Shown: piece by piece, positions 1-64,000 of the stretch
How positions within the stretch are numbered: position 1 is the first letter of the stretch
Layout: each line of letters starts with the position of its first letter
Virus record (IMG/VR): IMGVR_UViG_3300028591_000099
Location: 32,001 to 96,000 of that record
Source: a virus
Lineage: Duplodnaviria > Caudoviricetes
Length of the DNA: 64,000 bases
Reading direction: 5' to 3' (one strand)
Program-made: the position numbers and the translations under genes
The notes under the pieces: generated by a model
Told to the model about the DNA's origin: nothing
The model's database searches: none
Seen by the model: the letters and a program-made list of their open reading frames with translations, nothing else

Positions 1-2
1 GT

Positions 3-182
3 GAAATCCAGGTTTATAAGAAAGTTGGCGTTATCTGCATGATGAATAATGCAATTTGCGTCTACAAAGATACTTCCTTATCTAAGGAAGGTGCGTTCCA
101 GTTAGCTGATACAGTTAAGAACGTTGTTGTTGTCGAAGAGCCTGCAGAAGGCGAAGGCGGCGCAGAAGGATCGGGAAATTAA
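3..182 (+). CDS. Probable major capsid protein, C-terminal end (partial, starts upstream of window)
   Basis: Open frame EIQVYKKVGVICMMNNAICVYKD...EGSGN ending TAA at 180-182; sits immediately upstream of neck genes; capsid call is from motif recall and synteny. Confidence 0.65.
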   Translation, partial: EIQVYKKVGVICMMNNAICVYKDTSLSKEGAFQLADTVKNVVVVEEPAEGEGGAEGSGN

Positions 183-586
183 CGGTAACAGTTAGTAAGT
201 TGACCACTCTTCCATCTTGGGATGCTCATTACACAGATATGCAAACCAACAATGGGGCTGTTACAGTAGAACAAAGTGGTGACGAAGTTTCAATTAAAGG
301 TAGTTTAGCTTCATTAGTATCATTCGCATCCAGTAATCCAGCTCAAGGAGAGCATAAATGGATCGGATTAGATATTAATACAGGTTTAGACTCAATCGTC
401 GGTGCTACTTGGAATGGTAGTGCATTAGAGCAAGCCGATGAAGATGAAGCGACTGGTTTAGGTTTAGCTAAAGGTCACATTGTCTTCTGGGCTAAGGCTG
501 AAGCATTAGCAGAAGCTGCGAGAACCATTGCAATCGGAGCAGAAGACGAAGTCGTTAACTTAAAGGTTGCTTTTGTTGAAGCATAA
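173..586 (+). CDS. Predicted -1 frameshift C-terminal extension of the capsid protein (beta-rich, ~135 aa); the track ORF 200..586 is its 3' part
   Basis: Slippery heptamer G GGA AAT at 173-179 directly before the capsid stop; -1 frame is open (KLTVTVSKLTTLPSW...) to TAA 584-586; no SD before the TTG at 200. Confidence 0.7.
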   Translation, partial: GKLTVTVSKLTTLPSWDAHYTDMQTNNGAVTVEQSGDEVSIKGSLASLVSFASSNPAQGEHKWIGLDINTGLDSIVGATWNGSALEQADEDEATGLGLAKGHIVFWAKAEALAEAARTIAIGAEDEVVNLKVAFVEA

Positions 587-606
587 AAACTTAATATATA
601 AGGAAA

Positions 607-644
607 AAGGGGAGCTAGGGGTAAATCCCCTCTCCCCTTATTTT
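607..644 (+). terminator. Rho-independent terminator after capsid genes
   Basis: AAGGGGAG...CTCCCCTT stem with inner GGGG/CCCC, followed by ATTTT. Confidence 0.75.
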
Positions 645-673
645 CATTAATAGGAGAAAAAGGAGATAATAAT

Positions 674-1222
674 ATGGCAGATTATGTAACTGTTGAAAAT
701 AGAAGTGCTGGAAAAATTGTTTATTCAATTCCAGATAGACATATTCGTAAAGAGCTTGCACCGAGACAGACTATTAGAGTGCCAAAAGAAGAAATCGAAG
801 CACTTGCTTATTCTGCAGGCGGACTTGACTTAATCAGAAACCACCTCTTGGTAAAAGACGAACAGATTTTGGATGAATTAAACGTCCATAGAGAACCTGA
901 ATATTATATGAATGCTGATAATGTCGCAAATTTAATTAAAAATGGAACTTTAGATGAATTTTTAGATGCTTTAGACTTCGCACCAGAAGGTGTTATTGAT
1001 ATGATTAAAGATTTAAGCGTTCAGATTCCATTAAATGATTTTTCAAAAAGAAATGCTCTTAAAGAAAAAACTGGATTTGATGTAGATGCGGCTATCGCTC
1101 ATGATAGAGAAAATAAGGCTGCGGAAGGCGATGAACCGGTCGAGGCAGCTGCACCGAAAGTGCGTAGAGTCCAGGCTAATCCAGCAAGAAGAACTTCTGG
1201 CACAAAAATTATTAAAAAATAG
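674..1222 (+). CDS. Hypothetical phage protein (182 aa), head module
   Basis: SD AAGGAG, intact ORF, TAG stop. Confidence 0.85.
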   Translation: MADYVTVENRSAGKIVYSIPDRHIRKELAPRQTIRVPKEEIEALAYSAGGLDLIRNHLLVKDEQILDELNVHREPEYYMNADNVANLIKNGTLDEFLDALDFAPEGVIDMIKDLSVQIPLNDFSKRNALKEKTGFDVDAAIAHDRENKAAEGDEPVEAAAPKVRRVQANPARRTSGTKIIKK

Positions 1223-1246
1223 TAAATAAGAAAGGAGAGTTATACA

Positions 1247-60579: not shown

Positions 60580-62088
60580 ATGGCCGATATAAGTCAAGTA
60601 CAATTAGGTGAAAATACTTATGCTATAAAAGACCCCTTGGCTAGAGAAAGAGGTATCGAATATATAAGAGGTACCTGGGCTGCGGCCTCCGGAGTTTGAA
60701 CCGGTACCTCGGCAGATAGCCAGCTTTATGATGGTAAACAAATAATATTATATATGCCCTATAATGGAAATGGAGCAGAAGTTACCTTAAATCTAACCCT
60801 AGCAGATGGAACTTCAGTTACTGGGCCTAAGAAAGTATATTTTGAAGGCACAACTAGATTCACCTCTCAAAAAGAGGCATATTCACAACTACATTTAATT
60901 TATCACCAAACTCATAATATCAACGGGGTTAATTATGAAGGTTGATGGTATATAGCGAATGCAGATAAAAATGATAACTATTTATCAACACCATATTATT
61001 ATTATGCAAAACCATTCACTGCTTTATACAGATATCAAATATGCTTAACAAAAAATGCTGACTATATTTTACCAATAAATGCAGTAAATAATAGCTACAG
61101 TACAGATAAAATTTTAACAACAGAATCATTTGATCCATTTGGACCTATATTTTATTATAATAGCACAACTAATAAAACTGCTGGTTCAGCGGTTGCTGCG
61201 AATACATTAAGACAAAATGACCTAGCAGATTTAAGATTTTCTTTTAATGTTACAACAGGTGGTTTTACTTCCAATAAAGCAATATATCTAGTAGCAACGC
61301 CTCAGGATGATGGCTCGGCAAAATTATATGAAGTTCCATTGACTCAGACTTTACCAATAATAGATGATGGTTTAATTTATATTCATTTAGGTGTCGTTTA
61401 TGCTAGTTATTATCTTCAAATGGTACCATCTCATGCAATATATTGCTATAAATATGGTGCATTAAGGCCTTATGGTGGCACACCCGTCCAAGCCGCGCCG
61501 GTAGAAAAAGTGATTACTTTATTAGCAAGTGGCTGAGATGGCAATAATGAATATACTGTATTAGATGAAAACGTAACAGCGACTTCAATTCAAGAAGTTT
61601 CTGCGCCTGATGCTAATTACACTTCTATATCTGAATTAAAAGCCTTAGGTTCGGCAATGTTAATTGATGCAGGCCAAGGAACTGGATATTTTAAGTTAAA
61701 AGCCTTGGGAACTGTACCTACAATTGATTGTGATATTAGAGTTATATTTAATTATTCAACTGATGCTAATATAGTAGCAGTAAATAGTGCGGCGGCTTAT
61801 GCTGCGACAGCAGAGGGATATAAAAATCAAATTGCTAGTTATGCTAAAATACAAAGAAAAACAGTTACTATTTCAAGTTTAAGCATAGATAGTTCTAATA
61901 CAACATATCCTTATAAATATGAAGTTGCTTGAAATGGTATAACGGCCGATGACTGAATTGATGGTGCGGGAATAGAAGACCAAAATTGAGCAATTGAAAG
62001 TGCTGCTAATAAAGTTATATTACATTTTAGTAAAAACATATCTGACAGTATAACCATTACTATTTATTGGGCTTCTACAACAGCATAA
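60580..62088 (+). CDS. Tail fibre/receptor-binding-type protein (502 aa, code 4)
   Basis: SD AGGAG; six TGA join track ORFs 60754/61339/61657; TYAIKDPLAR N-terminus; TLLASG-W module. Confidence 0.75.
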
Positions 62089-62102
62089 GGAGAGTGCATA
62101 GT

Positions 62103-62606
62103 ATGTTAAATAAAAAAGAAATTACTAAAACTGCAAGTAATACAGATTATGATAATAGTACGAGTGGATTAAATGCAGATTCAGTCCAAGGAGCAATTGA
62201 TGAAATTCAAGAGTCAATTGATGAAATTACAGACACCATGAATGTAGCACATTATTATAATCATGAATCTGATATAGCATGAACGTCAAATACATCTGTT
62301 GTTAAAAATGGTGCAGATTACTCAGGAATAAATATTAAAAATGGTTTTGTTAGTGTGCAAGTTAATTTCTTTACAGCAGCAACGTTAAACAGTGGAACAG
62401 AATATACTGCATATACTCTTCCAGATGAACTAAAAGCATTAACAGGAACTACACAAGTTACTGGTTTTGGTGGAGCTGGTAATACATTAATAAAAATAGT
62501 GTTTGATACATGAGAAACTGCACATACTTTAAAAGTTACTCCAAGAGGCAGCAACGTAGCAGCAAATACTCAGCTTCAAGGAAATTTAATGTTTCCAATT
62601 ACTTAA
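62103..62606 (+). CDS. Small receptor-binding head-like protein (167 aa, code 4)
   Basis: SD AAGGAG; YDNSTSGLNADSVQGAIDEI neck motif followed by a beta-rich domain; two TGA. Confidence 0.7.
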
Positions 62607-62669
62607 TTTAACTGTTAATATTTGAAAATGAACAGTTTAGCTAATAACAGATAGTCAAAGGAGAGAAAA

Positions 62670-63494
62670 ATGGCAACAGAAATAAAACTTAGAGCGGGGG
62701 CCACGACCTCCTGACAAAATAAAACAGTAACACCTGGGGCAGCAACGCAAGTAGTATCTGCTGACCCAGGATACTATTTAGGGCAAGTAACAGTATTGCC
62801 TATCCCAGCTTTAGAGACACAAACAAAAACAGTAACCCCATCTTCAGTAGAACAAACAGTCACTGCAGATGACGGGTATATCCTATCAAGCGTTACAGTT
62901 AATCCTGTTACTACTCAGACTAAGAGTGCGATACCAACAACGTCCGCACAAACAATTACTCCAGATAGCGGAAAATATTTAAGTAGTGTATCAATTGATG
63001 CGATTAGTACTCAAACAAAAACGCAGGCTGCTGGAACAAGTAATATAACTGTAACCCCGGATAGCGGAAAATATTTAACGAGTGTTACAATAACGCCAAC
63101 ACCAACAGAAACAAAAACCGTATCGCCTAGCTCATCAGCTCAAACAGTTACGCCATCTTCTGGAAAATATTTATCTCAAGTTACAGTTAATGCAATATCT
63201 TTAAAAACACAAACTGTATCTCAAACTATAACCCTTAATGCTGGAGCTAATACAACTAAAACATTTACTTTTTCTAATTTAACTACAGTTTATGGTATTA
63301 CAAAAATGCAAAAAACTAATGGTAGTGTATTAATTACTATATTTAACGGTTATCCAGATGCAGGAACTGGCACAAATGCTTTGAATATTCCGTCTGGAGG
63401 AATTAGTGGTAATACTATTACTCAAAGATTTATTAACAACAGTGATGCTAACAACCAGTCTGCGGTAATAGCCATTACCGCCATCGGCGTCTAA
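62670..63494 (+). CDS. Repeat-rich fibre protein (274 aa, code 4)
   Basis: SD AAAGGAG; one TGA near the start; five ~30-aa QTKTVTP…TPDSGKYLSxVT repeats. Confidence 0.8.
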
Positions 63495-63507
63495 TGGAGG
63501 TGATAAA

Positions 63508-63981
63508 ATGCCTACAATATTAAACTTAGGAGGAGCCGGAGTTGCGGAACTCGCAGGAACGGCGACCGCAAGCGATGTTTTTGCTGGAAAAACTTTTTAT
63601 AGCACAGATGCGGAAACTATGGAAACTGGAACATATAGTCCGAGTATTACTCAATGAAAAAATGGAGATTATGCTGCTATTACAAATCAAGAAATAACTG
63701 CAACAAATTGTATTGGTTATGGTTTAAGTATTGTGAAAGCAGAGACTGGGTCTGCAAGTTATGCTCCGTCTGTAACGCTTCAAGGTTATACCGGTTCGGC
63801 TTGAGAGAACATTTCAGTTTCTTTAACTGGACCCACTTCTTGTGCTGGTGGTTCCGGTGGAGGCAATTTAAGAGCATGACACGCAATGGGCACTTTCAAT
63901 AAAAGATATACAAAAGTTCGTTTAAGTAGACCACAAAATTCTGTTTATGCTTGTTGTACTCAAATTTTTCTATTTACATAA
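63508..63981 (+). CDS. Small fibre-tip protein (157 aa, code 4), absent from the ORF track
   Basis: SD GGAGGTGA; GTATASDVFAGKTFY motif shared with other fibres; three TGA; TAA 63979-63981. Confidence 0.75.
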
Positions 63982-64000
63982 TTAAAAATTAACCCTAACC

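Follow-up and report, generated by a model that had tools for sequence, protein, structure and literature searches.

How does a phage make its virion proteins when their reading frames are interrupted again and again by TGA? This question is raised by a 64,000-nt stretch of DNA (the window), which comprises bases 32001-96000 of the 160,981-bp IMG/VR virus record IMGVR_UViG_3300028591_000099, a linear contig with a GC content of 35.6% and a completeness of ~93% as estimated by CheckV. With high confidence we regard the window as a block of structural genes from a large, siphovirus-like Bacillota phage, whose relatives include Enterococcus phage EF1, Lactococcus phage 949, the phAss-1 group and large phages of Bacillus. 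Our results indicate that TGA encodes Trp in these genes (genetic code 4), and it is highly probable that a single genome holds two readings of TGA: in early genes it is a stop or is absent as a sense codon, and in late genes it is read as Trp by a phage tRNA with the anticodon UCA, hereafter tRNA(UCA). Virion genes are given in window coordinates (1-64000), and "contig" marks coordinates of the whole 160,981-bp record.

The meaning of TGA in the virion genes

The initial annotation described successive open reading frame (ORF) fragments joined by TGA, about 130 by hand count, and called for a comparison of coding density under tables 11 and 4. For this, all stretches of 100 codons or more without a stop, in whichever of the six frames, were counted as coverage. 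Such stretches covered 80.1% of the window under table 11, 97.4% with TGA as a sense codon and 83.8% with TAG as a sense codon, and the longest one grew from 863 codons (table 11) to 2574 codons when TGA was read as sense. Under code 4 the window holds a tightly packed, non-overlapping set of 35 genes, with all real genes on the + strand and a GGAGG-like ribosome-binding site directly upstream of most. Their 20,613 codons include 136 in-frame TGA, close to the hand count, and 110 TGG, with no in-frame TAA or TAG; all 35 end, as had been stated, in TAA (29 genes) or TAG (six genes). TAA and TAG account for 7% of triplets when these genes are read in their two off-frames (TGA, 3.2%), and such long open frames are therefore not explained by chance. 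Counted from TGG only, Trp content is 0.53%; it rises to 1.19% with TGA, the codon used for more than half of the Trp residues.

The residue encoded by TGA was read from relatives. With the capsid-like protein (4537-5616) as query, 80 related IMG/VR loci were collected, which by coding density comprise 14 TGA-recoded, 38 TAG-recoded and 28 standard-code loci. The late proteins, carrying X at every TGA, were aligned to these loci and the aligned cells were counted. W was the commonest residue opposite query TGA in both standard-code (385/668 cells, 58%) and TAG-recoded relatives (480/799 cells, 60%), with Tyr a distant second, and the profile matched that of query TGG (W in 436/839 and 595/1071 cells, respectively). 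In TGA-recoded relatives, query TGA stood opposite TGA in 138 and W in 80 of 322 cells, and query TGG opposite W in 250 and TGA in 87 of 424. At many TGA sites (e.g., 1598, 2812, 3537, 9085) all ~65 relatives have W. Late regions of four near-complete standard-code relatives were fetched for a second alignment, to which 78 window TGA sites could be matched; W was again the commonest residue, and at 12 sites, from 9085 to 39810, it was present in all four.

A Pfam domain gave a second line of evidence. The CBM_5_12 match at 26927-27088, which contains two TGA, scored 36.1 bits (profile positions 1-43) when TGA was translated as W, vs. 31.5 bits with Y and 28.4-28.6 bits with G, C or R. The external homologue alignments, as decisive support, and the CBM_5_12 test together confirm, at the level of sequence comparison, that TGA is a Trp codon in the late genes. 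The same residue had been proposed initially from paralogous motifs inside the window, all of which proved exact to the base: W-EGT-Y in the CBM-like module (TGG at 25615 vs. TGA at 26951), RPADW(TGG)P at 55006 with TGG at 55018 vs. RPSD(TGA)P at 56508 with TGA at 56520, NKW(TGG)IKL at 30521 vs. NR(TGA)IKL at 30176, and YDGTNW(TGG) at 45551 vs. YDEAQDS(TGA) at 51374. When the proteins of the phage were compared all-against-all by BLAST, TGA being translated as X, TGA paired with TGA eight times and with W once; the paralogues are only 20-40% identical, and this search, weak evidence when taken alone, gave no verdict.

The claim that the whole virion module is recoded stood for the 28 of 35 window genes that contain TGA and did not hold for the other seven, which have none and include the capsid-like gene. 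Genes of the block, among them those that carry the aligned TGA sites, are as follows:

1-64000 (+): late (virion) gene block; 35 genes under code 4, 136 TGA, 110 TGG, stops TAA or TAG only
200-586, 674-1222, 4537-5616, 7297-7827, 20008-20283, 32826-34541, 44981-45676 (+): genes free of TGA by in-frame codon count
1247-4513 (+): five head/neck-region genes called under code 4, one of them a 109-amino acid (aa) ORF overlapping its neighbours; seven of their TGA (1475, 1598, 2494, 2812, 3112, 3537 and 4427) align with W in 26-28 relatives of standard code and in 35-38 that are TAG-recoded
4537-5616 (+): major-capsid-like virion structural protein (phrog_2729); 0 TGA, 3 TGG; 37-39% identical to Enterococcus phage EF1-type proteins and 53-58% to those of the phAss-1 group
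7942-15627 (+): tape measure protein, 2561 aa; 15 TGA, 10 TGG; TGA at 9085, 9178 and 9262 are W in 4/4 near-complete standard-code relatives
15742-19998 (+): tail protein, 1418 aa, with no family match; 15 TGA, 4 TGG; TGA at 18715 is W in 4/4 standard-code relatives
23872-26283 (+): tail protein (phrog_32343, phrog_1887) with a CBM_5_12 module, the first Trp of which is TGG (25615); 11 TGA, 8 TGG
26642-31813 (+): tail protein, 1723 aa, with a CBM_5_12 module in which both conserved Trp positions are TGA (26951, 27062); 16 TGA, 13 TGG
31928-32803 (+): 291-aa protein; both TGA (32204, 32531) are W in 4/4 standard-code relatives
34662-41606 (+): 2314-aa protein (phrog_14959; weak match to BspA-type leucine-rich repeats); 6 TGA, 21 TGG; TGA at 36168 and 39810 are W in 4/4 standard-code relatives
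51059-54682 (+): tail fibre (Phage_fiber_2 repeat); all seven Trp codons are TGA, 0 TGG
54682-57560 (+): two paralogous fibre-like genes; 5 and 9 TGA

A TGA-free capsid-like gene would fit a suppression that is weaker than ordinary decoding. The CBM_5_12 modules in the two large tail proteins (23872-26283 and 26642-31813) suggest that these proteins bind cell-wall glycans. Many window proteins were left without any assigned function by the Pfam and PHROGs searches. We also noted that T follows in-frame TGA in 10% of cases, TGG in 15% and codons overall in 20% (TGA vs. TGG by chi-square, p = 0.03), a weak signal which may reflect avoidance of a strong termination context.

Early genes, late genes and the code of the host

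Results for the rest of the contig showed that sense TGA is distributed very unevenly between two gene blocks of opposite strand:

contig 22.9-103 kb (+): late block; 55 genes, 166 TGA, 140 TGG
contig 103-138 kb (-): early block; 36 genes, 9 TGA, 109 TGG
contig 124576-125547 (-): GIY-YIG endonuclease in the early block, TGA-bearing
contig 133630-134214 (-): Amidase_2 endolysin in the early block, TGA-bearing

The difference in TGA vs. TGG usage between late and early genes gave a Fisher p = 8e-21. The early block encodes NrdD, DNA polymerase III alpha (DnaE), SF1 and DnaB helicases, NAD ligase (LigA) and GyrA/B; NrdD, DnaE, DnaB, LigA and GyrA/B have no TGA at all. All nine TGA of this block fall in the endonuclease and the endolysin, and the remaining 34 replication-block genes have 0 TGA vs. 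106 TGG. Among the small early-cassette genes (contig 1-22900 and 138000-161000), several carry a TGA near their code-4 end, with a TAA or TAG backstop 0-16 codons further on. For two of them (contig 6663-7049 and 138755-139015) the end-TGA is aligned with a TAA stop in sister phages, and therefore TGA is a true stop in these genes. Suppression of TGA would be cheap for the phage, because every one of its genes ends in a codon readable by RF1 or has a TAA/TAG backstop close behind TGA; after the switch, early proteins ending in TGA would gain short C-terminal tails.

The initial annotation had left two options for the host, a code-4 bacterium or a standard-code bacterium whose translation is overridden by the phage. 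It is the second that is favoured, since the replication genes are free of TGA, TGA stops are aligned with TAA and a tRNA(UCA) is encoded by the phage itself. A standard-code host is most likely, as judged from the TGA-free early genes and from the TGA stops that match TAA.

If instead the host itself used code 4, as a Mycoplasmatales-like bacterium would, the phage would simply mirror its host with no switch of code. Code 4 does occur in Bacilli-related lineages, an AT-rich genome of 35.6% GC favours TGA over TGG, and the NrdD search returned some phage-type NrdD contigs in metagenome-assembled genomes (MAGs) labelled Mollicutes or Erysipelotrichaceae. Yet a code-4 host gives no reason for the partition of 34 early genes with 0 TGA and 106 TGG vs. 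late genes with 166 TGA and 140 TGG, nor for several early genes that end in a TGA aligned with TAA in sister phages, and close relatives of the phage are TAG-recoded or not recoded. The NrdD matches are mostly contigs of 15-170 kb from herbivore-gut MAGs, with an NrdD 63-79% identical and with mutually discordant labels (Treponema, Bacteroides, Methanobrevibacter, Erysipelotrichaceae and others); these contigs probably belong to phages of this family and were misbinned with bacteria and archaea. A few other matches, at 66-69% identity, lie on long contigs that carry the label Erysipelotrichaceae or Eubacteriales. We thus consider a code-4 host improbable.

An intron-split tRNA(UCA) as the probable decoder

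With default ARAGORN and with Rfam at its gathering score, 22 tRNAs (tRNA-Trp(CCA) included) and a transfer-messenger RNA (tmRNA) were found at contig 138-148 kb, none of the tRNAs with a UCA anticodon. When introns were allowed in ARAGORN, a tRNA(UCA) gene was revealed 5.6 kb beyond the end of the window. The initial annotation had proposed a search of the rest of the genome for tRNA-Trp(UCA) and release-factor genes; the former is there, and searches with PF00472, PF03462 and PF00579 of the ~93%-complete contig gave no RF1, RF2 or TrpRS gene. The elements concerned are:

contig 100994-101023 (+): predicted sigma-70-type promoter with a perfect TTGACA-18-TATAAT, upstream of the tRNA unit
contig 101637-101911 (+): intron-split tRNA(UCA), found by ARAGORN with introns allowed
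contig 101950-101991 (+): predicted strong terminator with an 18-bp stem, at the end of the tRNA unit
contig 139575-139648: tRNA-Trp(CCA), from the default ARAGORN/Rfam search
sister phage G002, contig 58412-58506 (-): intronless tRNA(UCA), 95 nt, with a long extra (variable) arm and CCA in the loop of that arm

The tRNA(UCA) of 74 nt folds into a clean cloverleaf with A1-U72, G73 and an encoded CCA end. Directly after U34 its gene holds a 201-nt insert, which matches the Rfam Intron_gpI model with a score of 34.9 bits (E = 5e-7 for a search of 1 kb), with the conserved GAAGAUAUAGUC core included; it is because of this group I-like intron that default tRNA finders missed the gene. An earlier working explanation, with no suppressor tRNA and with decoding by tRNA-Trp(CCA) after inactivation of RF2, was dropped, as the intron-split tRNA(UCA) is real. 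Further UCA matches from relaxed ARAGORN runs (contig 13140, 15867, 99369 and 141768) were rejected, being AT-rich, full of mismatches or inside ORFs.

The gene is conserved among relatives. Homologues with an intron are present in two sisters, G001 and G004, with introns 80-83% identical to the query intron, and intronless tRNA(UCA) genes are present in G002 and G003. In total, tRNA(UCA) is encoded in 5/5 TGA-recoded genomes examined. The extra arm of the G002 gene has no counterpart in the tRNA(UCA) of the query genome. The contig ends of G001 and G004 repeat (~130 bp).

As to its expression, the tRNA unit consists of the promoter, two TGA-free ORFs (one Hsp20-like), tRNA(UCA) and the terminator. 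Host polymerase could transcribe this unit with no prior recoding, because the promoter is of consensus type and the ORFs are free of TGA. Early and replication genes, which lack sense TGA and in some cases end in TGA, would be translatable by an unmodified standard-code host. The intron would then splice itself out of tRNA(UCA), the host TrpRS would charge the tRNA with Trp, and the virion proteins, the amidase endolysin and the GIY-YIG homing-type endonuclease could be made at full length only once this tRNA is present. Such an arrangement would delay late and lysis proteins. A bolder proposal takes the code switch as a timed device, built from a standard-code mini-operon, a host-type promoter and group I self-splicing that frees tRNA(UCA). 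We consider this rather unlikely; if true, virion and lysis genes would become readable once tRNA(UCA) is active, and early proteins whose genes stop at TGA would be lengthened as well.

That the phage tRNA(UCA) reads TGA has to be weighed against low-efficiency read-through by tRNA-Trp(CCA) of host or phage, with the TGA codons as attenuators and tRNA(UCA) inactive. The phage does encode a tRNA-Trp(CCA) (contig 139575-139648), its tRNA(UCA) is interrupted by an intron that scores under the Rfam cut-off, and the capsid-like gene, presumably highly expressed, avoids TGA. We nevertheless judge read-through very improbable: with 15 or 16 TGA in single genes, the losses at each site would multiply until hardly any tape measure or tail protein was made at full length; the five TGA-recoded genomes examined have all retained tRNA(UCA), with or without an intron and with its cloverleaf intact; and the sisters G001 and G004 have no tRNA-Trp(CCA). 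Finally, there are the notions that TGA stands for a residue other than Trp (Cys, selenocysteine or, as in code 25, Gly), or that it stems from assembly errors or pseudogene decay. They find support in the existence of code 25 phages and in the label "SeC" that ARAGORN gives to any UCA anticodon, and are scarcely credible, as Gly, which the initial annotation had named as an outcome that would speak against Trp, is negligible opposite TGA (11/668 cells in standard-code relatives, and outside the 12 commonest residues in TAG-recoded ones), the CBM_5_12 score is higher with W than with any of G, C, R and Y, and Gly lowers it, tRNA(UCA) of this genome has no selenocysteine-type long arm, TGA is opposite TGA in 138/322 cells of independently assembled relatives, and 20,613 codons hold no in-frame TAA or TAG.

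Several points weigh against a Trp-inserting phage tRNA(UCA) in a standard-code host. The Intron_gpI match of 34.9 bits is below the Rfam gathering score of 50, and splicing of the insert is a prediction. The tRNA(UCA) stands apart from phage tRNA-Trp(CCA) genes by overall similarity, and its Trp identity rests on the protein alignments and on A1-U72/G73. As the contig is ~93% complete, an RF1 or TrpRS gene could sit in the missing part. In the four distant standard-code relatives, W fills ~29% of non-gap cells at TGA sites vs. ~54% at TGG sites; TGA sites are less conserved than TGG sites, and therefore many TGA are at variable positions where the residue is uncheckable. The NrdD search of bacterial genomes pointed to no single host.

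Apart from these, three other elements were noted near the tRNA array. The tmRNA (Rfam 101 bits; contig 138397-138751, - strand) has an unusual tag, ANFVKNIIAKVKNFFAPSYQVTFAC, and a near-identical tag is found in the sister G001. A GOLLD-like RNA match (contig 146684-147116, - strand) adjoins the array; at 79.5 bits (E = 1e-19) it does not reach the gathering score of 150. Just downstream of this match, contig 145016-146293 (- strand) encodes a protein with the N-terminal domain of major tropism determinants (Mtd_N), which may, from its domain content, be the target of a diversity-generating retroelement.

Comparison with known recoded phages

The recoding itself is real and very well supported, and the phenomenon is already described; the finding opens no new question. 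Its practical weight lies in annotation. The default bacterial code cuts 28 of the 35 window virion genes into fragments, and gene calls, protein clusters, and host and function predictions of this record are wrong unless code 4 is used for the late genes. It also adds one more clean case in favour of the idea that phages use a private codon to keep virion and lysis proteins from being made before their own tRNA is available.

In Mycoplasma and Spiroplasma (NCBI table 4), TGA is read as Trp by a tRNA with the anticodon UCA throughout the genome, and RF2 is absent. The phage has the same codon meaning and the same anticodon; unlike in these bacteria, recoding is limited to viral late genes and TGA still ends some early genes. 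In code 25 TGA encodes Gly, and code 25 phages have Absconditabacteria as hosts; in contrast to these phages, TGA does not align with Gly here, as the counts given above (11/668 cells) show. Code 4 phages with TGA reassigned to Trp were reportedly described by Ivanova in 2014.

The initial annotation noted that stop-recoded gut phages are known, and the pattern found here is indeed a published one. It is that of the TGA-recoded gut phages of Firmicutes, including the Agate clade, described by Borges et al. (bioRxiv 10.1101/2021.08.26.457843; Nat Microbiol 2022). The phage resembles Agate-type phages in its genome size class (~127-154 kb) and its own tRNA set, in the use of TGA as Trp in structural and lysis genes with the replication machinery left in standard code, in a recoded intron-type endonuclease within the early block, and in having close relatives that are TGA-recoded, TAG-recoded or of standard code. 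This agreement is one of described features. In the same survey, suppressor tRNAs were detected in only 35% of code-4 genomes (bioRxiv 10.1101/2021.08.26.457843). The suppressor tRNA of this phage is split by a group I-like intron, and their tRNA survey would have missed it. In a more modest form of the bolder proposal above, suppressor tRNAs that are intron-split or, as in sister phages, extra-armed might be behind a good part of the ~65% of published TGA-recoded phages that lack a detected suppressor. The "code change module" of Jade phages combines a suppressor tRNA with TrpRS and RF1 (bioRxiv 10.1101/2021.08.26.457843), whereas neither RF1 nor TrpRS was found on the ~93%-complete contig analysed here.

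The nearest named relatives by the capsid-like protein belong to two further groups. phAss-1, of the proposed Phassvirus, recodes TAG with tRNA-Sup(CUA), and its predicted hosts are Clostridia (PMC10607447). The capsid-like proteins of the phAss-1 group are 53-58% identical to that of the window, and the two are alike in being large gut phages that recode late genes and supply suppressor tRNAs of their own; the difference is in the codon, which is TAG in phAss-1 and TGA in this phage. The Enterococcus phages EF1 and VRE9, Lactococcus phage 949 and Brevibacillus phage Sundance, large siphoviruses of Bacilli with standard code, have a homologous virion structural protein (35-42% identical), a similar genome size and a similar tail module with a long tape measure, but in them no stop codon is recoded. 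A capsid lineage in which TGA-recoded, TAG-recoded and unrecoded members stand together is well suited to the study of how such switches originate.

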